From assembly GCA_964426185.1 (NCBI GenBank), contig CAYRPF010000084.1, forward strand, positions 1 through 12,791: a stretch of 12,791 nt of DNA, in the 5' to 3' direction. The stretch is from an uncultured archaeon. Lineage in GTDB: Archaea > Asgardarchaeota > Lokiarchaeia > Sigyniarchaeales > Promethearchaeaceae. Shown here one piece after another: positions 883 through 12,790 of this stretch (its first letter is position 1; the number at the start of each line of letters is the position of its first letter). The notes under the pieces were generated by a model. That model had not been told where the DNA came from. It searched no databases and saw nothing but the letters and a program-made list of their open reading frames with translations. The position numbers and the translations under genes were made by a program.

Positions 883-1572
883 GTGAACCAAATGAAGGAT
901 CCAGATCTAGAACAAGCATTGCTTGATGTAGATTTCCTATCAGTTCAGAGTATTTTACATTCTTGGGTTAAAGATAACCCAGATATTGATGAAATTTTAG
1001 AAAAAATCCAAGTAATTATGGAATCAATTGGAAAAAAATGGGAAAATAGTTCAATTGCACTTTCTCAAGTTTATATGGCGGGTAAACTGGTTGAACAAAA
1101 TCTGAATGAACTTTTTGAAGATTTCTCCCATTCTATTCAAAAAAATCAGCCTGAATCTCTTCAAAAAGACGTATATACAGGAGTATTCGAAGATTATCAT
1201 GCACTAGGCCAGATAATTTTGAATTCTTTTTTAAGATTAGCGGGCTATAATGTAATAAACTTGGGAATTGGGTTAACTAAAGGAGAATTATGTGAACAAG
1301 TCAAAAATCAACAAATTTCAATATTACTATTATCGACTTTAATGCTTTCTTCTGCCAAACATTTGGAAGAGACAATTAGAGATCTACGAAAGATTAAGCC
1401 TAACATAGTTATCTTCGTGGGAGGTGCCCCATTCAACTTTCAACAAGATCTGTGGGAACGGATAGGAGCAGATTATTATGGAGCTTCTCCAAATGCGATT
1501 TTACCGATATTAAATAATATTTTTAAGCAGTTCAATCCATCTAATGGACATTCCATGGAGGTATTCCAATGA
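883..1572 (+). CDS. Cobalamin (corrinoid)-binding protein, cap domain plus B12-binding Rossmann domain
   Basis: Cap-like IMESIGKKWE...LSQVYMAG, DxHxxG motif (EDYHALG; D-G at 1192-1209), SxL (LLSTLM) and GG (FVGGAPF) motifs of His-on corrinoid proteins. Start is GTG883 or ATG892. Confidence 0.9.
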   Translation: MNQMKDPDLEQALLDVDFLSVQSILHSWVKDNPDIDEILEKIQVIMESIGKKWENSSIALSQVYMAGKLVEQNLNELFEDFSHSIQKNQPESLQKDVYTGVFEDYHALGQIILNSFLRLAGYNVINLGIGLTKGELCEQVKNQQISILLLSTLMLSSAKHLEETIRDLRKIKPNIVIFVGGAPFNFQQDLWERIGADYYGASPNAILPILNNIFKQFNPSNGHSMEVFQ

Positions 1573-2579
1573 ATTCAATGGAACGTATTTTTGCTGCAGT
1601 CCAATGGCAGGAAGTTGATCGACTCCCGTTTATTTTGAATTTAACTCATCATGGAGCAAAAGTCTTAAATCTTTCCATTCGAGAATATTATTCCAAAGCA
1701 GAATACATGGTTGAAGGACAAATTAAATTATGGAAAAAATATCAAGATGATGTAGTGATAGGTATTTCCTATTTTGCTTCTGAGTTTAAAGCATGGGGGG
1801 GTGATGTCAAATTTTTCCTTGACGGCCCACCAAACTCAATGAGACCAAATCTTACAACACCCGAGGCAATTTTTGCAGCAAAACCACCTCAAATAGATGA
1901 TATTCCCGAATTTACTGAAACATTAAAAACTATTCGCCACTTAAAGGAATATTTCGGAGATAAAGTTCCAATAATTGGGGGGATCATATCTCCTTTTTCT
2001 TTTCCTATAATGCAGATGGGATTTAACAAATATATTGAACTCTTATATCAAGATCGAAATACATTTAACGAACTAATGAAAAAGAATATGGAACATGCTG
2101 TGAATTGGGCAAATCGGCAGTTAGAAGCTGGTGCAACAATGATAGTATATTTTGATCCGATGGGAAGTGCTGAAATGATTCCCCCTTCATTATATTTGGA
2201 AACCGGGTATCAAATCGCCAAGAGAACTGTGGCCCAAATAAAGGGTCCGGTTGTATATCACTTCGCTTCAAGTAGTTCACAGAAGAACTTACCAAAACTA
2301 ATTGAATTGCCAATTAAAGGTACAAGTATCTCAAACAAAGACAATATTACAGAGTGCTTGAAGATAATGGATAAAAAAGCGGCATTACTCGGAAATCTCA
2401 GCGGAATACAATTAATTCATGCAACACCAAATCAAGTAATCGATAAATTAAATAAAATTGTTAACAATGTTACTCCAAAAACAGGTTTTATTGTATCTGA
2501 TCATCACGGAGAGATTCCATATTTTGTGTCAGATGAAATTCTGACCATCATCTCTCAGTTTTTTCATAAAAAATTCTGA
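1569..2579 (+). CDS. Uroporphyrinogen decarboxylase / MtaA-CmuA family (methylcobamide methyltransferase-like) protein
   Basis: N-terminal MNSMERIFAA..EVDRLP, then VPIIGGIISPFS, QLEAGA..IVYFDP and LLGNL, matching the UroD/MtaA TIM barrel; ATGA overlap with the corrinoid gene implies coupling. Confidence 0.85.
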   Translation: MNSMERIFAAVQWQEVDRLPFILNLTHHGAKVLNLSIREYYSKAEYMVEGQIKLWKKYQDDVVIGISYFASEFKAWGGDVKFFLDGPPNSMRPNLTTPEAIFAAKPPQIDDIPEFTETLKTIRHLKEYFGDKVPIIGGIISPFSFPIMQMGFNKYIELLYQDRNTFNELMKKNMEHAVNWANRQLEAGATMIVYFDPMGSAEMIPPSLYLETGYQIAKRTVAQIKGPVVYHFASSSSQKNLPKLIELPIKGTSISNKDNITECLKIMDKKAALLGNLSGIQLIHATPNQVIDKLNKIVNNVTPKTGFIVSDHHGEIPYFVSDEILTIISQFFHKKF

Positions 2580-2609
2580 ACATACAGACTCAATTTTTTT
2601 TTAAAATAG

Positions 2610-2615
2610 AGGAGG
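2610..2615 (+). promoter_or_regulatory. Shine-Dalgarno AGGAGG upstream of in-frame ATA 2623
   Basis: AGGAGG lies 7 nt before ATA2623, which is in frame with the PAS gene, and 43 nt before ATG2659. Confidence 0.6.
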
Positions 2616-2622
2616 AATAAAC

Positions 2623-3552
2623 ATAAAAAGTATAGCAGATTTCACGTTTGCTTTAGAAATGATCAAAGAAATAGCCCAACTTCAAAATCGAAATGAAATT
2701 ATTCAAAAAGGAAAGGAAATAATTCACCTTCTCTTTGCACCGATTAGGGTTGAATTTAATGAAGAAATACCTGATTATATGGTTGAATTTAATGAAGAAG
2801 CGCTGATGAAATATAATTTTTCGTGGTCGACAGATGAAGAAGATCTTCTATTGAAAATAGCAAAGGGAGAAAAAAATTTCGGTTATATGCTGATTGAAAA
2901 ATTTACTTTTCCTGAATTTAAAAAACGATATATAACTCCAGCTCTATTAATAATGGATGTTTTGGCTTTATGCTTAGAAAATGCTGCAAATTTAGAAAAA
3001 ATCAAGCAGGAACAAGAAAAATTCCGTTTACTATTGGAATACACCGTAAATTGGGAATCTTTTTACCATCCTCAAAAAGGTTTTCTTTACATTTCACCTT
3101 CTTTTGAAAAAATAACGGGTTATTCATGTTTAGAAGCTTATAAAGACCCAAATATATTAGAAAAATTGATTTTTCCAGAAGATTTCCCACTTTTCGAGCA
3201 GTATTTTTCTTCTAAAAAGAAATCAGTGGAGCTTCGAATTCGGGGCAAAAAGGGAAATATTGTATGGATAAATTTTACTGCAACCAAAATTTTCTCTGAT
3301 ACGAAAGAATTTCTTGGGATTAGAGCAAGTTGTGCGGATATCACTGATAAGAAAAAGAAAGAATTTGAGTTGGATAAACTAAAAGGTATGATACCCATCT
3401 GTGCTAGTTGTAAACGAATTCGTACAGATGATGGCTATTGGAATCAAATTGAATCTTACATCGCTTCCATTTCCGACATCGAATTTACACATTCTTTATG
3501 CCCAGATTGTTTAAAAAAATATTTCCCTGAAAAAGAAAAGAAAAAGAAATAA
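2623..3552 (+). CDS. PAS/PAC sensor protein with N-terminal GAF-like segment and C-terminal Cys4 (CxxC...CxxC) Zn-ribbon; no histidine kinase domain
   Basis: PAS/PAC at about 3016-3345 (EKFRLLLE..YISPSFEKITGYS..LIFPED..ELRIRGKKGNIVWI..ADIT). C-terminal GMIPICASCKRIR..GYWNQIESYI..FTHSLCPDC at 3385-3510. Start is either ATG2659 (track) or ATA2623 (SD-supported). Confidence 0.82.
   Translation: MKSIADFTFALEMIKEIAQLQNRNEIIQKGKEIIHLLFAPIRVEFNEEIPDYMVEFNEEALMKYNFSWSTDEEDLLLKIAKGEKNFGYMLIEKFTFPEFKKRYITPALLIMDVLALCLENAANLEKIKQEQEKFRLLLEYTVNWESFYHPQKGFLYISPSFEKITGYSCLEAYKDPNILEKLIFPEDFPLFEQYFSSKKKSVELRIRGKKGNIVWINFTATKIFSDTKEFLGIRASCADITDKKKKEFELDKLKGMIPICASCKRIRTDDGYWNQIESYIASISDIEFTHSLCPDCLKKYFPEKEKKKK
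2748..2799 (+). repeat. Perfect 19-nt direct repeat (GGTTGAATTTAATGAAGAA x2, 33-nt period) inside the PAS gene
   Basis: Copies at 2748-2766 and 2781-2799, encoding VEFNEE-IPDYM-VEFNEE. Confidence 0.9.
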
Positions 3553-3563
3553 TTCTCTTAGAT

Positions 3564-4673
3564 TTAGCAAATTTGCCAATCCAAGAATGAACTCTTTAAT
3601 TTATTAATTGCTTCATTGTTTTTCTTTTTCTTTTTTTCATTATTTTTAATATTTGACCAACATTCAGAACACCAGTGAGTTTTTAAGGCAATTAGTTTAA
3701 TTTCTTTATGACCACAAGAATTACATAAAACTTTTCCACATGATTGACAGTAATTAAGATTTCTAAAATACTTAACAGATTTAGTGATTTTATGGCATTC
3801 TTGACAAAGAATAGTGGTTTTGTCTAATAAACTATCGATTTTATTTTGATTTAACACTTTAGACACTTTACCTTCATGTAACTGTAATTTAATATCGATA
3901 TCTTCTCCAATTTTACCTTTCATTTCAACTGATGACCCCCAATAAATAGATGAGAACTGAACATTAATCTCTGAAATATCCGCGGTGCAAACCATTCTAC
4001 GTTTTTGATTATTTTGATCCTTGAATTCTTTTTCGATAGTAGTGGTTTGTTGTATGATCTCTTTCACAGTTGATATTTCATTTTTTTTTGGGGCAGTATC
4101 AATTGAATATTTAAAACCCTCTTTTTCAATAATATCAGTTAATTGATCTAAATCCATCCATACAGTTTTTGGGCGATTTTCTACAATCAACCAGTTTTGG
4201 GTAGGATGATTTACTAATAAATGATTATCATATTTCATATCCCATACCCACGTCCTCGTTCTATTTGCAAATTGGTGCCAGAGATTAAATTGATAAAATT
4301 GAAAAGGTGTAAATTTTATTTTAGAGTAACTAATATCCGATAGAAACTTTGAAGGAGGGTTTGGATAACTAAATATTGCTCTATCAATAAATTCATGAAA
4401 CTCTAATTCTAAAGAGGTCTTATTTATCGGTCTGGTTAGCTTATCAAAGGGTGAAACACCTTTTGCATCCACTTCAGCTGTTCTCCCTGCTGAATCAAAA
4501 AAGGGATAATTTGGAATTTGCAATTGAATTTTTTTCTTATTGAAATGGAATAACTTATAAAAAATATATCCCAGAATTACTGCCAAAGTAAAAAAACTTG
4601 CATATAATACAAATGCAGTAGTTTCTGATTGGATGATGAACATTGGGAAGTATACAATCAGATATGATGCCAT
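3564..4673 (-). CDS. Hypothetical membrane-anchored protein with C-terminal Cys8 FYVE-like zinc finger
   Basis: Hydrophobic N-terminus (AFVLYASFFTLAVILGYIFY then K-rich); C-terminal CxxC-x15-CxxC-x4-CxxC-x14-CxxC. Confidence 0.75.
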   Translation of the reverse strand: MASYLIVYFPMFIIQSETTAFVLYASFFTLAVILGYIFYKLFHFNKKKIQLQIPNYPFFDSAGRTAEVDAKGVSPFDKLTRPINKTSLELEFHEFIDRAIFSYPNPPSKFLSDISYSKIKFTPFQFYQFNLWHQFANRTRTWVWDMKYDNHLLVNHPTQNWLIVENRPKTVWMDLDQLTDIIEKEGFKYSIDTAPKKNEISTVKEIIQQTTTIEKEFKDQNNQKRRMVCTADISEINVQFSSIYWGSSVEMKGKIGEDIDIKLQLHEGKVSKVLNQNKIDSLLDKTTILCQECHKITKSVKYFRNLNYCQSCGKVLCNSCGHKEIKLIALKTHWCSECWSNIKNNEKKKKKNNEAINKLKSSFLDWQIC

Positions 4674-4945: not shown

Positions 4946-5314
4946 ATGTCTTACGTAGATATAGAAATTCCGGATGCTCTTAAAACCAAGATTTTAGACT
5001 TAGTCACTGCAACAGTGAACAAGCAAGGCAAGATCAAAAAAGGTATGAATGAAACCACCAAAGCCATTGAACGTGGAGTGGCTAAATTGGTTGTTATCGC
5101 AGGGGATATTACTCCTGCAGAAATTGTAATGCATTTACCCGCAATTTCCAAAGAAAAGAAAGTGCCATATGTTTTTGTAGATAGTCGCGCAGAATTAGGT
5201 AAAGCAGCTCAAATCAGTATTCCTTGCTCGGCTTTGGCTATAACTCAAGTCCCTAAAGATGTAGAGAGCGATTTAAAAGATATTGTAAAGAAAGCGGCCG
5301 CATTACGCAAGTAA
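4946..5314 (+). CDS. rpl7ae: 50S ribosomal protein L7Ae (eL8), K-turn binding protein
   Basis: [38 protein letters not shown]...[15 protein letters not shown] is the L7Ae signature. Confidence 0.97.
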
Positions 5315-5327
5315 GGAGGGGATTATT

Positions 5328-5567
5328 ATAGCAAAAAAAAATACCAGTGATAGTTCAACAAGATCTCCTGGAGAATGTAATGCGCAAGTAATACAAATAA
5401 TCGGTCGAACGGGTCTGACAGGTGAGATTCTGCAGTGTAAGGTTCGAGTTTTAGACGGTCGAGATAAAAATAGGATTATCACGCGAAATATTAAGGGCCC
5501 AGTGCGATTAAACGATGTGGTAATTCTGCGAGAGTCTGAGAGGGAAGCAAAACGCATCCGCAAATAA
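5328..5567 (+). CDS. rps28e: 30S ribosomal protein S28e (eS28), non-canonical ATA start; absent from the ORF track
   Basis: Manual translation: (M)[78 protein letters not shown]. Has the eS28 motifs [13 protein letters not shown] and LRESEREA, follows L7Ae as usual, and has GGAGG at 5315-5319. Confidence 0.95.
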
Positions 5568-5795: not shown

Positions 5796-6728
5796 ATGTT
5801 GCTGGTAGATTCTATTGTAACTCGTACAATAAATTTAGATTTTATTTATTTTGATCTTTTATTCTTAGCATTTTGGATTTTTTTCATGATGCGAAAAAAA
5901 TATTGGATTCCCATTTTGTGGGGAGTCATCGGTTGGGCTGTATATTTATTCGTGGATTATTTTCTCTGGTATAGAGTGATGCACTCTCGGCAATATGATG
6001 GTTCAATCAATTCCGATTTATTTTTCCTGTGGTTCTGCCTTTCTGCTGGGTTTGCGCAATTTTCCTACGTGGCTGTGATGTTAGAAAAGCGAAATTGGCG
6101 TGAAATCTTAATCTGGACTCTATTTTTTTACTTGGGATGGACAATGGTTGGAATTTTGTCCCAATGGCTATCGATCAATGATTCCTTAATTCGAGTTAGT
6201 CGTAATATGAACGCGTTGAAACAGCGTCTATCTTTCACATTAATGGCTGTGGGAAATTTCCTCATTGCTTTAGTATTGAAGGCACTAAAGAAGATAACTT
6301 GGCATGATGTTTTCTATCTATTTCTAGTGGGCACATTGGTAGAAATGAATTTAGAATTCTCTTTAGCGGTTTCGGGTATCAGATTAGAGCAAGGTGAGTG
6401 GAGCTTTCAGCTTTTTATCGTTAATACCCTTATCGAATTTAATATGGGAATTGTGTTGATGTTCTTACTCTGGAGCTTCACGGTCAAAGGTCCAAAGAGG
6501 ATGTTCGATCCTATGATTCAGTGGAAGGATAGGAAGAAAATTACTACCAACTTTAATCTTTTATATTATTTATCTACGATTTCAGAATCTGAAAGCGTTA
6601 AGGAAAGAAATGTGAGAAATATGCTGAAAAGATGGCTTTATCAACTTGATTCAAACCAAAAATTATATCCATCAGAGCAAATTCAAAAGGAAATAGAATA
6701 TGTCAACGTAAATAAAGAAAGTAAATAA
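5796..6728 (+). CDS. Hypothetical polytopic membrane protein
   Basis: 310-aa ORF with about 7 hydrophobic segments and a soluble C-terminal tail; no family recognised with confidence. Confidence 0.75.
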   Translation: MLLVDSIVTRTINLDFIYFDLLFLAFWIFFMMRKKYWIPILWGVIGWAVYLFVDYFLWYRVMHSRQYDGSINSDLFFLWFCLSAGFAQFSYVAVMLEKRNWREILIWTLFFYLGWTMVGILSQWLSINDSLIRVSRNMNALKQRLSFTLMAVGNFLIALVLKALKKITWHDVFYLFLVGTLVEMNLEFSLAVSGIRLEQGEWSFQLFIVNTLIEFNMGIVLMFLLWSFTVKGPKRMFDPMIQWKDRKKITTNFNLLYYLSTISESESVKERNVRNMLKRWLYQLDSNQKLYPSEQIQKEIEYVNVNKESK

Positions 6729-9098: not shown

Positions 9099-10628
9099 AT
9101 GAACGAAATCTCAATCGTACCAGATGAACCGCTTGATGAAACGGAACAACATTTAATTTCACTAGTAGAGGAACATCGCCAAGAACTTATTACGCTCCTT
9201 AAAGATCTTATTAAATTTGACAGCCGGACCTATGAGTCTTCTCACTATAGCGATCTTCATCCAATAGCCAATTTTTGTGTGAAAAAACTGAATGAATGGG
9301 GGATTAACACCCAGGTGATAGAGTGCCCTCATAAAGGTCAATTACTAAACCAGACTTGGCCGAATCTTATTGCGTCCTTGAAAGGAAAAAATTGGAAAGA
9401 TCGGCGTTTGGGATTTATGGGACATTTAGATATCGTCCCTTTTAATCCCGATACTTGGACATCTATCTCGGACCCTTTACAGCCTGAAATCAAAGAAGGA
9501 AAACTCTACGGGCGCGGTGCCATCGATATGAAGAGCGGCGTGGCGGCACAAATGATGTCAATCTATTTGTTAAAGATATCAGGAATCGAAATCCACGGTG
9601 AACTGCAGTTAATCCTTACCCCTGACGAAGAAATCAGCGGAAAATATGGTGCGGACTTTTTAGCAACCCAATATCCAGAAATTGCTTCTGCCACTGCTCG
9701 AATTATAGCAGAACCCACTGGACAGCCACCGATTAAAAGTCCAGCAATTATAATTGGAGAAAAGGGTGCAAATTGGCTGAGATTGCATTTTCATGGAGCT
9801 TCAGGGCACGGATCTCAACCCAAACCCAAATCAAATGCAATTAATAAAGCTGCCCGTTTTATATATCTAGCCCAAAATCATTTGAAGTTTCGAGACCCAA
9901 AACCACCTTTCACCATAAAAGATCTGGTTACAGGCATGATCTCCCGCTTTGGATTGAAAAATCTGCTGGGATCAATACTAAAACCCGACTCAGAAAAAAA
10001 AAAACCAGATATTATTAAGCAGACCAAAACTACAAATAACAAAAATTCCAACCAAGATTACAACGAAGATGGAGTAAACTTCAACACATTCCTCCATACT
10101 AGCATAAGTTTCAATCAAATTCAAGCGGGAACCAAAACTAATATCATTCCAGATACTTGCACACTCGAAATTGATGTAAGGGCACTGCCTGGAATGACTT
10201 TAACTCAAATTTTACAAGATATTACAACTTATGCCAATAAATTAAATTATCGAGTGGAGTTAGACGAAAAACTTTCGAAAGATTATTCTATTAAGCAGAA
10301 GCAGAAGATTTTGAAAAGAAATCCTGATATCACAGTGAAAGTGCTGGTGCATAATGACGGCGGGAGTGAACCGATGGACGCCGAGCTGACAAGATTACTG
10401 GCAATTCAATTTGAAAAGATTTACCGAACCAGACATCTTTTCTTTCTCTCTCCAGGAATGACCGATGCCAGTCACTTTCGAAAACAAGGGATTAAAAATA
10501 TAGTTGTATTCGGTCCCAGCGGAGATAATGCACACAATGCCGATGAATTTGTATATCTTGAAGATTTAGTTCAATGCACTAAGGTTTATTTGACTACCGC
10601 CTATAAATTTTTAACCAAAGTGAATTAA
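9099..10628 (+). CDS. M20 family metallo-hydrolase (ArgE/DapE-like deacylase/peptidase)
   Basis: GHLDIVP, GKLYGRGAIDMKSG, PDEE, AEPT, GHGSQP, NIIPD.C, TDA and AHNADE motifs. Confidence 0.92.
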   Translation: MNEISIVPDEPLDETEQHLISLVEEHRQELITLLKDLIKFDSRTYESSHYSDLHPIANFCVKKLNEWGINTQVIECPHKGQLLNQTWPNLIASLKGKNWKDRRLGFMGHLDIVPFNPDTWTSISDPLQPEIKEGKLYGRGAIDMKSGVAAQMMSIYLLKISGIEIHGELQLILTPDEEISGKYGADFLATQYPEIASATARIIAEPTGQPPIKSPAIIIGEKGANWLRLHFHGASGHGSQPKPKSNAINKAARFIYLAQNHLKFRDPKPPFTIKDLVTGMISRFGLKNLLGSILKPDSEKKKPDIIKQTKTTNNKNSNQDYNEDGVNFNTFLHTSISFNQIQAGTKTNIIPDTCTLEIDVRALPGMTLTQILQDITTYANKLNYRVELDEKLSKDYSIKQKQKILKRNPDITVKVLVHNDGGSEPMDAELTRLLAIQFEKIYRTRHLFFLSPGMTDASHFRKQGIKNIVVFGPSGDNAHNADEFVYLEDLVQCTKVYLTTAYKFLTKVN

Positions 10629-10642
10629 AAAAATTAAAAAAA

Positions 10643-11377
10643 TTAAAAATCGAAAGTAAATTCATCTTTACTCTTTTTCTTCTTCTTCTTTTTTGCTCCT
10701 TTTCCAGCTACACGTGGTTCAGTTTCATAGGGAACATAACTGGCAAAAGCGGCACCAGTTTCAACTGAAAGAGAATCTTCTTCTTCATGACTCCAACCCA
10801 ACTCTTTCTTTGAAAAACTGAAAAATAAGGCTTGAATGGTCCAAAAGATGGTTAAAATACCATTTAGAATAAAATATACTTCGATAAATCCATTTTCGTC
10901 ATAACTCTGAACCATAAAACCAATACCAAATACTCCTTGCACTACCAAGATAACCAAAAAGAGAAAAATGCCCGTAATTAGAGTTATTTTATTGTGTTTC
11001 CTAAAACTAATACAACCAAGTAAGTAAAATATTGCCACAAATACGGAAACAGCATTAAAAATTAATAAAGTATTGGCATACATCAAATTAAACAGCCAAA
11101 AAGCCAATTCTGTTAGAAAAACCAAAATTTCTAAAATACTGGCTACCACCATCATACCAGTGCTTTTCACAAAACCAGAAAAGAACACTAACAACATTCC
11201 AAATATAAAAAGTCCATGTCCTATTATTATTAAGGCTACAGGTGTAGAAGTTAATACTGAAGAAGCTGCACGGAAGCTGGCCCAGAGACTCACAGAAGAT
11301 ACTCGAAAAAACATTGAAACTCTTAAAAATGCTCCGAGCGCAGCTATTATAAATCCAATTAAAGCCCCGATTTTCAT
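10643..11377 (-). CDS. Hypothetical membrane protein (about 6 TM) with charged C-terminal tail
   Basis: Highly hydrophobic first 190 aa; the tail has an acidic patch, a K7 run and ends DEFTFDF. Confidence 0.75.
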   Translation of the reverse strand: MKIGALIGFIIAALGAFLRVSMFFRVSSVSLWASFRAASSVLTSTPVALIIIGHGLFIFGMLLVFFSGFVKSTGMMVVASILEILVFLTELAFWLFNLMYANTLLIFNAVSVFVAIFYLLGCISFRKHNKITLITGIFLFLVILVVQGVFGIGFMVQSYDENGFIEVYFILNGILTIFWTIQALFFSFSKKELGWSHEEEDSLSVETGAAFASYVPYETEPRVAGKGAKKKKKKKSKDEFTFDF

Positions 11378-11506: not shown

Positions 11507-12790
11507 TCATCCCGCTTTCGGCTTTTTACGAGATTTTTTATAAAGAGAAGGATTTTTACACGCACTTGAATCTCTTTTATTACCTTGTTTCGCTGCTGGT
11601 ACTTTAGGTAGTTCTTTTTTAAATTCATCGTGATGAGAAATTATTTCTGTTTTAGCCTTAAGTAAATCAGTGAAATCATGGGGAACTTGTGAGTTAATTT
11701 CCTTGGAACTTTCAGTTAAATCGGATTCAGTTCCCATGTCCGAACTTAATTCTTTCGTTTTCTTTGTAGTTTTCTTGGTTGTAATTTCTTTCGATTCTAT
11801 TAAGGGTTTATCTGGAGCAATTTGCTTCCTTTTCCGGAAAAGCTGAATAAAAGCATTTTTAGCTTTAAACGTAAATGTTCCAAGATGAATAAAAGGTTTC
11901 TTTAATTTGCTCATACTACTGTTTGAGGTGGTTTCTTTTCTAACTAAATCACCCTCAGTAGTATATTTTTCCTGAATTCCCTCTTTGAATTGAGTATCTG
12001 TGGTTTTTTGTAGTAAGTCTTGATAAGTTCCATAGTCTTTGGTTTTCTTACGATAATAAGTTAAAGCACCAATGGATCCGGCAAACATGATACCCAAAAT
12101 AATAATTACAATCCATAGATTTCGAATTTTTTTCCTAAAATCTTCTTCCATTTGATTTAATTGATTTATCCCTTCAGTGTCTTCAATAACCACTACTACC
12201 GTATCACTGATTGTTTCGCCTGTACTGGTAGTCAAAACACATTGAAATACATACTGCCCAGGTTTCAAGCCATTCAAAGGAAGGGTAATTGGCAAACCAC
12301 TAGACCATTCACCTTCATATACAACTTCTCCATTCTGGTAAATTACAACCGTATCTGCAAAAGGGGAATACCCAACCCAAGTTAAGGTTTGATTAGTGTC
12401 ACTTGAATTGAATTGAAGGTTATCAAGGGCTGTTAATACGGGATTGGGTTCCAATACTGTAAAAGAAACAACATCTGAAATAGATTTCCCAGTGGTTGAA
12501 TTCATTACGCATTCAAAAAAATGTACGCCTAAGCTGAAATTGTTAATTGAAAAAGTTATAGGAATATCCGACTGCCATACATTTTGATATACCAAAATGC
12601 CGTTCTCATATATTACGACAATATCGGGAGTTAAAGATTTCCCGATCCATGATATATTTACCGCACCAGGGACTAAAGTTGCGTTATAAAAAAGAATGAT
12701 ATCTTCAGGATGAGTAATATTCAAAGAAGGCTCTATCACGGCAATATGCACCAAATCAGAAATAAATTCGCCACTCGTCGCATTTAACCA
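11507..12790 (-). CDS. Single-pass cell-surface protein with tandem ~90-aa Ig-like repeats (5' end outside the window)
   Basis: The frame stays open beyond TTG12754 to the window edge (WLNATSGEFISDLVHIAV, matching the repeat ends). Two full repeats, many NxS/T sequons, TM LWIVIIILGIMFAGSIGALTYY followed by RKK, and a Lys-rich cytoplasmic tail. Confidence 0.85.
   Translation of the reverse strand, partial: WLNATSGEFISDLVHIAVIEPSLNITHPEDIILFYNATLVPGAVNISWIGKSLTPDIVVIYENGILVYQNVWQSDIPITFSINNFSLGVHFFECVMNSTTGKSISDVVSFTVLEPNPVLTALDNLQFNSSDTNQTLTWVGYSPFADTVVIYQNGEVVYEGEWSSGLPITLPLNGLKPGQYVFQCVLTTSTGETISDTVVVVIEDTEGINQLNQMEEDFRKKIRNLWIVIIILGIMFAGSIGALTYYRKKTKDYGTYQDLLQKTTDTQFKEGIQEKYTTEGDLVRKETTSNSSMSKLKKPFIHLGTFTFKAKNAFIQLFRKRKQIAPDKPLIESKEITTKKTTKKTKELSSDMGTESDLTESSKEINSQVPHDFTDLLKAKTEIISHHDEFKKELPKVPAAKQGNKRDSSACKNPSLYKKSRKKPKAG

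Follow-up and report, generated by a model that had tools for sequence, protein, structure and literature searches.

Does a gene for a corrinoid protein that overlaps one for a protein of the UroD/MtaA fold, and is followed by a gene for a PAS protein, belong to a methyl-transfer pathway or to a receptor that senses through its corrinoid? The question is raised by a contig of 12,791 nucleotides (CAYRPF010000084.1; hereafter the window, meaning the whole stretch analysed) from a Promethearchaeaceae archaeon, a Loki-type Asgard archaeon, in which three ORFs lie on the plus strand at 883-1572, 1569-2579 and 2659-3552. The initial annotation had read these as a compact unit of co-oriented genes that may have a signalling rather than a catabolic role. 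We refer to the corrinoid protein as COR, to the UroD/MtaA-fold protein as URO, to the third protein as the sensor and to the N-terminal domain of the latter as ND, and found the following features:

883-1572, plus strand: COR, a corrinoid (cobamide-binding) protein of 229 aa with a cap domain and a Rossmann B12-binding domain (Pfam, motif, NCBIfam)
1557-1572, plus strand: translational coupling signal read in the sequence, GGAGG at 1557-1561, then 7 nt and the URO ATG overlapping the COR TGA (ATGA, 1569-1572)
1569-2579, plus strand: URO, a UroD/MtaA-fold protein of 336 aa and of a distinct subfamily (PF01208, 1.3e-51; structure model; structure match)
2594-2602, plus strand: run of nine T in the URO-sensor intergenic spacer, read in the sequence (function inferred only)
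2611-2625, plus strand: probable start of the sensor gene at a non-canonical codon, GGAGG at 2611-2615, 7 nt, ATA at 2623
2623-2910, plus strand: ND, a GAF-fold domain specific to the cassette, residues 1-96 when numbered from ATA 2623 (structure model, VIA-align, our own HMM)
2911-3039, plus strand: long helix linking ND to PAS, residues 97-139 (assigned by DSSP in the structure model, H97-139)
3052-3342, plus strand: PAS domain, residues ~144-240 (PAS_3, 1.1e-09; PAS_9, 2.6e-08; TIGR00229, 2.1e-13)
3391-3552, plus strand: Cys4 zinc-ribbon module with the stop codon, residues 257-309 (invariant Cys; structure model)

The coordinates agree with the compact, co-oriented arrangement and the ATGA overlap described initially, and COR and URO are predicted to be translationally coupled. 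The COR start at GTG 883 is uncertain, ATG 892 being the alternative. The sensor gene follows URO after a spacer of 43 nt and has a Shine-Dalgarno sequence of its own. The nine-T run in this spacer is a possible archaeal transcription termination or attenuation signal and counts against a single cotranscribed unit, as transcription could terminate there. A scan for sigma-70 promoters and hairpin terminators, which is ill-suited to an archaeon, found sites no more numerous than in shuffled sequence. The window shares the order of the trio and its ribosomal-gene neighbourhood with Harpocratesius, a near-complete relative (4.36 Mb contig) whose three proteins are 59-70% identical to those of the window, and the order is also kept in a same-genus genome, which points towards purifying selection since these lineages split.

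COR matches the Pfam families B12-binding (PF02310, 8.8e-16) and B12-binding_2 (PF02607, 6.6e-06) and carries D104-x-H106-x-x-G109, followed after 41 residues by S151-x-L153 and after a further 26 by G180-G181, which is the canonical cobalamin-binding spacing. The DxHxxG motif initially reported as intact is therefore present, and D104xH106xxG109, S151xL153 and G180G181 are invariant in 42 cassette COR homologs. Taking a B12 Rossmann domain with helical cap and DxHxxG-x41-SxL-x26-28-GG as reference for MtaC/MtbC-type, methyltransferase-cognate corrinoid proteins, COR passes on fold and motif, and it fulfils all that His-on cobamide binding demands of the sequence. Its best-scoring models are those of methyltransferase-cognate corrinoid proteins (TIGR02370, 1.2e-19), but scores stay far below the NCBIfam cut-offs (70.5 versus 215.3 bits for TIGR02370, 60.4 versus 350 for MtbC and 36.7 versus 420 for MtaC). 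The CarH model matches weakly and over the B12 part only (5.6e-10; 38.9 bits versus a cut-off of 400). The cap motif of CarH-type proteins is W-x9-E-H; it is absent from the COR cap, which reads W-E-N-S-S-I-A-L-S-Q-V-Y (family consensus WExGxxALSQVYMSG), and COR has no fused MerR-type DNA-binding domain, thus failing the criterion for a CarH-type photoreceptor. C70, nearly invariant in COR elsewhere, is Val in the Asgard clade.

URO meets the criterion for the URO-D TIM-barrel fold by its PF01208 match and by Foldseek, as the best PDB match of its structure model (pLDDT 93.8) is MtaA (4ay7; TM 0.89, rmsd 2.3, E 4.4e-19). Its motifs are DGPPN, SPFSxPxxQxG, HxAS and D(N/H)HGEIP. The HxC...C zinc-binding site is missing: LHICGN of MtaA aligns to YHFASS, the 336 residues include just one Cys, and across 19 homologs no Cys position is invariant. 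URO also scores below the NCBIfam cut-offs (110.5 versus 235.4 for TIGR01463, 86.5 versus 400 for MtaA_Meth). Identity between the archaeal proteins and those of many bacterial phyla is 43-48%, mean column identity is 64%, and the invariant polar residues include H231, D311, H313 and E315. URO is the sole URO-D family gene in the genome assembly of the window.

The third gene had been taken to start at ATG 2659, and this start did not hold. Upstream of it lies an in-frame stop (2602-2604), with no ATG, GTG or TTG between the two, while the residues encoded upstream of 2659 match the family: the added IADFTFALEM fits the ND family consensus and, at the same offset, the annotated N-terminus of the Harpocratesius ortholog. 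Translation most likely begins at ATA 2623, a non-canonical codon. The description of the product as a PAS plus zinc-ribbon protein was right as to the PAS domain and the Cys4 C-terminus but incomplete, since it left the N-terminal GAF-fold ND unnamed. VIA-align superposed sensor residues 1-141 on the GAF domains of PDE6 (Z 13.2), KdpD (Z 12.8) and PDE2A (Z 12.3), the nearest clusters of ND in a feature search are GAF, and the ND model is mostly above pLDDT 90. No Pfam family, GAF included, matches ND, and an ND profile found nothing among PDB sequences (best E 0.68), so that ND is GAF by fold only. Foldseek with the full-length sensor model gave matches dominated by PAS/LOV, the GAF fold of ND being seen only in the wide VIA-align search. 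The ND HMM built here matches the window frame starting at 2605 at 1.4e-35, its one match in the genome; a near-invariant GF pair of ND is Leu-Leu in the Asgard clade. The PAS region matches PAS/LOV structures at Z 12-14, without the LOV-type NCRFL motif in its sequence. Consistent with the initial annotation, no HisKA, HATPase, REC or HTH match was found in the third protein with Pfam or NCBIfam.

This leaves the CxxC...CxxC zinc ribbon at the C-terminus as the only candidate output domain of the window's sensor. C248, C251, C281 and C284 (numbered from ATG 2659) are invariant in 11 sensors, as are the residues K, R, D, G, Y, W, E, Y, S, F and H; the confidence of the ribbon model is moderate (pLDDT 56-78), and no Pfam or NCBIfam family matched the module. 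The same module terminates PAS, GAF, REC, Cache, CHASE, MASE6 and VUPS proteins, and the kinase-less ribbon ending is a recurrent alternative output, bacteria included. We found no description of the module in the literature searched, which left out most subscription journals.

To place the trio among its relatives, we surveyed the neighbourhoods of related loci with our own ORF calling and defined the cassette operationally as COR, URO and then an ND-domain protein on one strand, an order that the window meets. A search with the URO patterns D[NH]HGEIPxxV and PFS[LFI]P[VI][MV]Q[ML]G, both present in the window's URO, found relatives in no fewer than 570 species genomes. Among the 71 loci with a called URO, the gene immediately upstream is COR in 60, and an ND-bearing sensor comes directly after URO in 55 of the 59 loci informative for it, that is, with enough downstream DNA (in 2 of the 55 with a separate DUF1638 gene in between). 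A search with ND gives 1608 cluster representatives (E<=1e-3), and the domain occurs exactly once per genome, within ~50-650 nt of URO, in five of five genomes of 3.7-8.2 Mb. Sensors are fused DUF1638+ND proteins in 43 of the 59 loci, split into DUF1638 and then an ND sensor in 2, and have ND without DUF1638 in 10; DUF1638, which 45 of 59 loci have and which occurs in 122 when the 150 best ND representatives are taken, is thus common but not universal. A tie between ribbon output and DUF1638 loss, suggested by the ribbon ending 8 of 10 DUF1638-less sensors in URO-sampled loci, was rejected, as among the 150 best ND representatives the ribbon occurs in 9 with and 4 without DUF1638.

The 53 complete sensors carry HATPase_c (32), HisKA (23), GGDEF (8), REC (6) and EAL (1), so that the outputs are interchangeable signalling domains, and the earlier statement that similar pairs adjoin histidine kinases is borne out. 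Further out, neighbours on both flanks are mostly REC, histidine kinase and PAS proteins (80 loci), and MtaB, MttB, pterin-binding methyltransferases and RACo are not among the 25 commonest neighbour families on either side. The initial annotation would have been refuted had homologous pairs mostly sat with catabolic methyltransferases; they adjoin signalling genes instead, and this comparative evidence, with ND sensors after URO, supports its signalling role. Zoogloea, Accumulibacter, Thiocapsa and cable bacteria are among the carriers. Asgard archaea have the cassette only patchily, with 6 positive genomes in a search of 201, and in our tree the Asgard clade is a long branch within a mostly bacterial polytomy. 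No description of the cassette was found in the searched literature, most subscription journals being outside the search.

The absence of substrate-specific methyltransferases and of a RamA/RACo activator, asserted earlier for the window, agrees with its Pfam and NCBIfam matches and extends to the 92%-complete assembly, in which RACo_C_ter (PF14574), MTTB (PF06253) and MtaB (PF12176) have no match; the search for MT1 covered PF12176 and PF06253 only, and pterin-binding methyltransferases exist elsewhere in this genome. DUF1638 is likewise absent from the genome (neither PF07796 nor a cassette-derived HMM matched), and Harpocratesius lacks DUF1638 and RACo (PF14574). With DUF1638 and RamA/RACo missing from both genomes, the minimal core of the cassette is COR, URO and ND.

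On these grounds we consider it reasonably probable, in the absence of any experiment or expression data, that the three genes represent, in Promethearchaeaceae, a widespread signalling cassette based on a corrinoid, in which COR and URO act as the sensor. URO would dock on COR, a contact that is inferred, and change its cobalt state, most likely through methyl transfer between Co(I)/CH3-Co(III) and a non-thiol metabolite of unknown identity; ND would sense the state of either COR alone or the COR-URO complex, and the change would travel along the 43-residue helix via PAS to the Cys4 ribbon, which would act on an unknown target without phosphotransfer. Since near-invariant residues are lost (C70 of COR to Val, GF of ND to Leu-Leu), the relay may be altered or decayed in the Asgard lineage, and sustaining a catalytic Co(I) cycle would be hard with no reductive activase. 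A further proposal, which we put forward tentatively and with somewhat less than even confidence, is that COR, a zinc-less MtaA-like URO and a GAF-fold ND constitute an undescribed class of cytoplasmic receptor, here without DUF1638, activase or phosphotransfer and signalling via a widespread, uncharacterised Cys4 ribbon.

The alternative that survives best, though we think it unlikely, is that COR and URO serve a methyl-transfer pathway as its corrinoid protein and its MT2 (or MT1), with the third protein as a regulator of transcription or activity that responds to another signal via its PAS domain and controls their expression; gene adjacency is equally expected if it merely regulates the pair. 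Candidate pathways would be O-demethylation, the use of methyl sulfides or methylamines, or a step that supplies the Wood-Ljungdahl pathway. The closeness of the URO fold to MtaA, the top scores of COR with methyltransferase-cognate models, the enzyme-like conservation of URO and the pterin-binding methyltransferases elsewhere in the genome all fit such a pathway, but both proteins score far under every NCBIfam equivalog cut-off, URO lacks the Zn-thiolate site on which MT2 enzymes that methylate thiols depend, and MtaB, MTTB and RACo were found neither in the genome nor among common neighbours in the 80 loci. GGDEF/EAL and hybrid-kinase outputs are, moreover, unlike those of dedicated operon regulators, ND occurs solely beside URO in the five large genomes, and some carriers, Zoogloea, Accumulibacter, Thiocapsa and cable bacteria among them, are not known to be corrinoid methylotrophs. 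On the other side, the Geobacter homologs GSU2386/2387 are regarded in a proteomics paper, without data, as possible parts of the acetyl-CoA pathway (PMC7894505).

It is also rather unlikely that COR and URO form an enzyme system making or consuming a diffusible small molecule that ND binds, with no protein-protein relay. GAF folds usually bind small ligands, as in cNMP-binding GAF domains, and the fold of ND, the many invariant polar residues kept in URO (H231, D311, H313 and E315 among them) and the occurrence of the cassette with or without DUF1638 are all in keeping with such a ligand. Yet a diffusible ligand would not demand strict one-to-one adjacency in single copy, and ND is a shortened GAF of ~96 residues plus helix whose pocket is possibly too small. 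DUF1638 is, in addition, fused to the sensor in most bacteria, and its genetic link to the corrinoid protein in Phaeobacter (bioRxiv 10.1101/192971) suggests direct contact between DUF1638 and COR.

We hold it improbable that COR senses redox state, oxygen, light or cobamide availability (through Co(I)/Co(II), CarH-like photolysis of the upper ligand, or holo versus apo forms), with URO as a non-catalytic cap or chaperone. Without a reductive activase in the lineage (window genome and Harpocratesius) the cobalt state would track ambient redox potential, COR weakly matches the B12 part of CarH, and phototrophs such as Thiocapsa are among the carriers; however, the strong enzyme-like conservation of URO speaks against a passive cap, the cap helix of COR is without the CarH-type motif, and many carriers come from dark anoxic sediments. 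That the cassette is a decaying remnant of a bacterial import, no longer working as a unit in the archaeon, is hardly credible: patchiness, the long Asgard branch, the lost COR and ND residues and the missing canonical start codon would suit it, but the three reading frames are intact and order and neighbourhood have been kept.

If the preferred reading of the trio as a corrinoid-based receptor is true, B12 chemistry serves sensing, beyond catalysis, riboswitches and light reception, and does so in at least several hundred species, from many bacterial phyla to methanogens and Asgard archaea. The window copy is useful as a minimal one: as its lineage runs the cassette without DUF1638 and a RamA-type activase, the search for the contact surface narrows to the ~96-residue GAF-fold domain, and a fast catalytic Co(I) cycle is disfavoured. 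The locus also highlights a Cys4 module that ends many kinds of sensor without a family name or known target, and labels such as 'uroporphyrinogen decarboxylase' or 'MtbA' for cassette genes invite false reconstructions of methylotrophy or the acetyl-CoA pathway.

Among known systems, the methylotrophic three-component corrinoid methyltransferase systems (MtaABC, MtbA/MtbC, MttBC, MtsA and bacterial O-demethylases) resemble the cassette in a corrinoid protein of ~220 aa that combines a cap and a Rossmann B12 domain and carries DxHxxG...SxL...GG, in a UroD-fold partner nearest MtaA (TM 0.89) and in translationally coupled genes. They differ in that the window's URO has no HxC...C zinc site, that MT1 (MtaB and MTTB families) and RamA/RACo were not found in locus or assembly, that scores are far under the equivalog cut-offs and that the conserved third gene encodes a signalling protein, with signalling neighbours in 80 loci. 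In Phaeobacter inhibens a DUF1638 protein is genetically required for a split B12-dependent methionine synthase (Price et al., bioRxiv 10.1101/192971). That system likewise combines a stand-alone corrinoid protein with separate partners, and DUF1638 is the usual N-terminal domain of cassette sensors; it is, however, biosynthetic and has a RamA-like activase, whereas cassette and genome of the window lack both DUF1638 and RamA. CarH/LitR and AerR/PpaA are single-protein B12-dependent regulators, CarH being a MerR fusion that responds to light through AdoCbl. They too use a B12-binding domain for regulation rather than catalysis, but COR has no DNA-binding domain and no W-x9-EH cap motif, and has an obligatory MtaA-like partner. 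In Methanosarcina, MsmS/RdmS-type kinases adjoin the MtsD/F/H corrinoid methyltransferase fusions, and haem-GAF sensing regulates catabolic methyltransferases; these, too, are archaeal signalling proteins encoded beside corrinoid methyltransferase genes, but here the corrinoid pair is seemingly the input, a kinase is lacking, and the GAF fold is that of a separate, cassette-specific domain family. In H-NOX/HahK, H-NOX/diguanylate cyclase and NosP/NahK, finally, a soluble haem protein is encoded directly upstream of a cytoplasmic signalling partner and outputs vary across species. The cassette shares with them a gene for a cofactor-binding protein upstream of a kinase, cyclase or other interchangeable output, but its cofactor is a cobamide rather than haem, it has two accessory proteins rather than one, and its receiver has dedicated input domains (DUF1638 and/or ND), with a zinc ribbon as the output in the window.

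With the start of the third gene corrected and a domain added to it, the reported trio of co-oriented genes was confirmed: COR (a corrinoid protein gene), URO (a gene of the UroD/MtaA fold) and a third gene, hereafter the sensor. At 12.8 kb the window makes up the whole of contig C84, which belongs to a Loki-type Asgard genome of 3.26 Mb (92% complete); its nearest relative in the collections searched is Candidatus Harpocratesius (Promethearchaeaceae). The trio and its surroundings are laid out as follows:

114-548, left of the trio: S6e-like ORF, whose Harpocratesius counterpart is Pfam Ribosomal_S6e
597-779, left of the trio: small L24e-like ORF, read by eye
883-1572, + strand: COR, corrinoid protein of 229 aa, Pfam B12-binding and B12-binding_2
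1569-2579, + strand: URO, URO-D fold (Pfam)
2659-3552 as first placed, + strand: sensor
3564-4673, - strand: convergent gene with a FYVE-like zinc finger, closing off the three co-oriented genes
4946-5314, right of the trio: L7Ae

The initial annotation had the frame of the sensor right, its start probably wrong, and missed a GAF-fold domain. Upstream, the reading frame stays open as far as a stop at 2602-2604, ATG, GTG and TTG are all absent between this stop and 2659, and a GGAGG at 2611-2615 is followed 7 nt further on by an ATA at 2623. The twelve residues thereby added (…IADFTFALEM…) fit the family consensus LADYAMxxDLL and align, at equal offset, with the first residues of the Harpocratesius ortholog, whose start codon is TTG. 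Since no ATG, GTG or TTG is available and the upstream residues are conserved at a matching offset, ATA 2623 is the likely start, inferred from sequence alone. Gene callers shorten the sensor to 297 or 257 aa; protein P0124, the database version, has 257 aa. An AlphaFold model of the sensor (38 sequences, pLDDT 88.4) comprises:

residues 1-96: ND, the N-terminal compact alpha/beta domain
between ND and PAS: a long helix of 43 residues
residues 144-240: PAS domain
residues 257-309: C-terminal Cys4 ribbon, modelled at lower confidence

No Pfam family covers ND, which superposes on the GAF domains of PDE6, KdpD and PDE2A (Z 12-13); a feature search likewise led to GAF. At about 2836-2841 of the window the Asgard clade has Leu-Leu, versus a nearly invariant Gly-Phe in ND domains. 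In the sensor, Pfam and NCBIfam searches detected the PAS domain but neither a kinase nor a receiver nor a DNA-binding domain, which agrees with its original description as a PAS protein lacking kinase, receiver and HTH domains.

Relatives of URO number in the hundreds (41-48% identity) in very diverse bacteria, with a few in Asgard archaea and methanogens, and with one genome scanned for each species at least 570 URO loci came to light. Orthologs of the three proteins occur, among others, in Geobacter sulfurreducens (GSU2384-2387), Zoogloea oleivorans and Desulfonema magnum. ORFs were called in the best 80 of the loci, and the three window proteins and custom HMMs served as queries against them; in 60 of 71 loci COR immediately precedes URO. 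In 55 of the 59 loci with enough downstream DNA, URO is followed by an ND sensor: directly, with ND fused behind DUF1638, the usual N-terminal domain of this cassette's sensors (43 loci); after an intervening stand-alone DUF1638 gene (2); or in a form without DUF1638 (10). The outputs in 53 complete sensors are HATPase_c (32), HisKA (23), GGDEF (8), REC (6) and EAL (1), plus extra PAS domains, and the further genes flanking the loci on both sides again mostly encode REC, kinase and PAS proteins. MtaB, MttB, a pterin-binding methyltransferase and RACo are absent from the 25 commonest neighbour families of the best 80 loci. The ND profile gave exactly one match per genome, some 50-650 nt from URO, in five genomes of 3.7-8.2 Mb, and one match in this genome; among 1.84 billion cluster representatives it recovered 1608 proteins (E<=1e-3), the best 150 of which have DUF1638 before ND in 122 cases and ND first in 28. 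ND is thus specific to the cassette (COR, URO and an ND-bearing signalling protein), and the outputs are interchangeable.

Because of this gene order, the outputs, the neighbours and the single ND near URO, the pattern fits a dedicated input module whose outputs can be exchanged and not a catabolic enzyme pair, insofar as comparative genomics can tell. The strongest rival, a metabolic COR-URO pair with a local regulator, is considered unlikely. The initial annotation had favoured signalling, and the survey of homologous neighbourhoods sides with it: corrinoid/MtaA-like pairs sit with signalling genes, with no catabolic methyltransferase among the top families. A signalling role for the cassette is therefore supported by comparative genomics, with no biochemical data.

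COR carries D104-x-H106-x-x-G109, S151-x-L153 after 41 residues and G180-G181 after a further 26, bearing out the intact DxHxxG noted earlier; all B12-motif positions are invariant in 42 homologs, and COR meets every sequence requirement for the predicted His-on cobamide binding. Residue 70 (window 1090-1092) is Val in the Asgard clade and Cys in at least 90% of cassette corrinoid proteins (consensus RICEE). NCBIfam scores of both COR and URO fall well short of the cut-offs set for the named enzymes of methanogens and acetogens. URO overlaps COR by ATGA, as had been described, and a GGAGG lies 7 nt ahead of the URO ATG. Its predicted structure is confident (pLDDT 93.8) and closest to Methanosarcina MtaA (TM 0.89), true uroporphyrinogen decarboxylases ranking behind. 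In the alignment the MtaA zinc ligands H-I-C become H-F-A; URO has one Cys, and no Cys is invariant across the subfamily. URO is, then, a strongly constrained MtaA-fold protein without the thiol-activating zinc site, and the assembly contains no other gene of the URO-D family. One 8.2-Mb bacterial genome (G203) has three URO-family genes (including C1:4378209-4379249 and C1:1772633-1773670) versus one ND domain, and some URO paralogs therefore have another partner or none.

The window sensor belongs to the minority class that is ND-first and lacks DUF1638, and the locus is a minimal, kinase-less archaeal variant of the cassette. Its ribbon spans ~55 residues with an invariant C-x2-C-K…R-x-D-x-G-Y-W…E-x-Y…S…F-x-H…C-x2-C; a fuller pattern is PIC-x2-CKKIRDD-x-GYW…HS…FSH-x-ICP-x-C (window 3391-3549; proteins P0136-P0243). 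Desulfatiglandales share the ND, PAS and ribbon architecture, Desulfobacteraceae and Thermodesulfovibrio have shorter ND-plus-ribbon proteins after COR-URO pairs, and some DUF1638-containing sensors also terminate in the ribbon. Neither Pfam nor NCBIfam has a model for this module, which terminates proteins (mainly of Thermodesulfobacteriota and Acidobacteriota) with PAS, GAF, REC, Cache-HAMP, CHASE, MASE6, VUPS and DUF3365 inputs; its occurrence behind so many different input domains suggests a general module for output or interaction, widespread and unnamed. A second protein of this genome (contig C28:30743-31768, - strand) ends in a Cys4 ribbon, so that at least two different sensors of this archaeon carry it; the N-terminal ~270 aa of the C28 protein resemble, by eye, a multi-pass membrane domain.

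Neither the Pfam model nor a cassette-derived HMM found DUF1638 in this 92%-complete assembly, in which RACo/RamA, MTTB and MtaB were not found either; DUF1638 and RACo were likewise not found in the 4.36-Mb contig of Harpocratesius repetitus. Bacteria with DUF1638-less cassettes have one DUF1638 gene elsewhere in the genome, and help in trans therefore remains possible for them; for this archaeal lineage it is largely excluded. Seven proteins with B12-binding domains, one of them MetH-like, are encoded in this genome, and the organism thus uses cobamides.

Ribosomal protein genes flank the trio on both sides in the window, and the Harpocratesius trio (L007:5482-9549) is likewise placed between S6e and L7Ae. 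This shared position indicates that the trio is inherited vertically within the family. In Harpocratesius L7Ae directly follows the sensor gene, and the FYVE-like gene hence appears to be an extra insertion in the window. S28e also lies downstream, with L7Ae (4946-5567). Further along, an M20 peptidase (ArgE/DapE family, 9099-10628) aligns ~166 residues to the M20_dimer model, which has 107 positions, and this suggests a putative insertion in its dimerisation domain; ORFs 5796-6728, 10643-11377 and 11507-12754 (310, 244 and 415 aa) match no Pfam family above cut-off, the last having a sole, borderline match to a chitinase A N-terminal domain.

URO relatives occur in 6 of the 201 Asgard genomes searched. 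A quick maximum-likelihood tree groups the window with Harpocratesius and a same-genus genome in one well-supported clade (SH-aLRT 99) on a long branch within an unresolved, mostly bacterial radiation; a second Asgard group branches apart, and the canonical DUF1638-ND sensor is present in another Loki family. Transfer of the cassette from bacteria is plausible; it is not demonstrated, because the tree lacks a root and its resolution is poor.

We infer that URO would act on the cobalt of COR, most likely by moving a methyl group between it and a non-thiol metabolite, with the invariant H231, D311, H313 and E315 as possible participants, that ND would read the state in which this leaves COR, alone or complexed with URO, and that the signal would pass through the long helix to PAS and ribbon without phosphorylation. 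We consider this mechanism moderately probable; within it, the reading of a methyl state leads the other versions but is unproven. Much less probably, ND, given its GAF fold, might bind a diffusible enzyme product. A sensor of redox, light or cobamide availability is a further, similarly unlikely possibility, and would leave the strongly constrained URO as a passive cap. Tight coupling in the window copy has points against it, namely a 9-T run in the URO-sensor spacer and the loss of the COR Cys and the ND Gly-Phe (Val70 and Leu-Leu being Asgard lineage-specific changes at otherwise fixed positions); that the locus is a decaying remnant is the weakest reading.

The literature searched describes neither the cassette as a sensor nor the ribbon module, and the whole cassette appears undescribed. 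A Geobacter proteomics paper names GSU2386/2387 as a corrinoid enzyme and methyltransferase that might belong to the acetyl-CoA pathway, undetected there (PMC7894505). DUF1638 is genetically required, with no assigned mechanism, in the split B12 methionine synthase of Phaeobacter (bioRxiv 10.1101/192971), and is found at higher abundance in Ruegeria growing on glycine betaine (PMC12478193).
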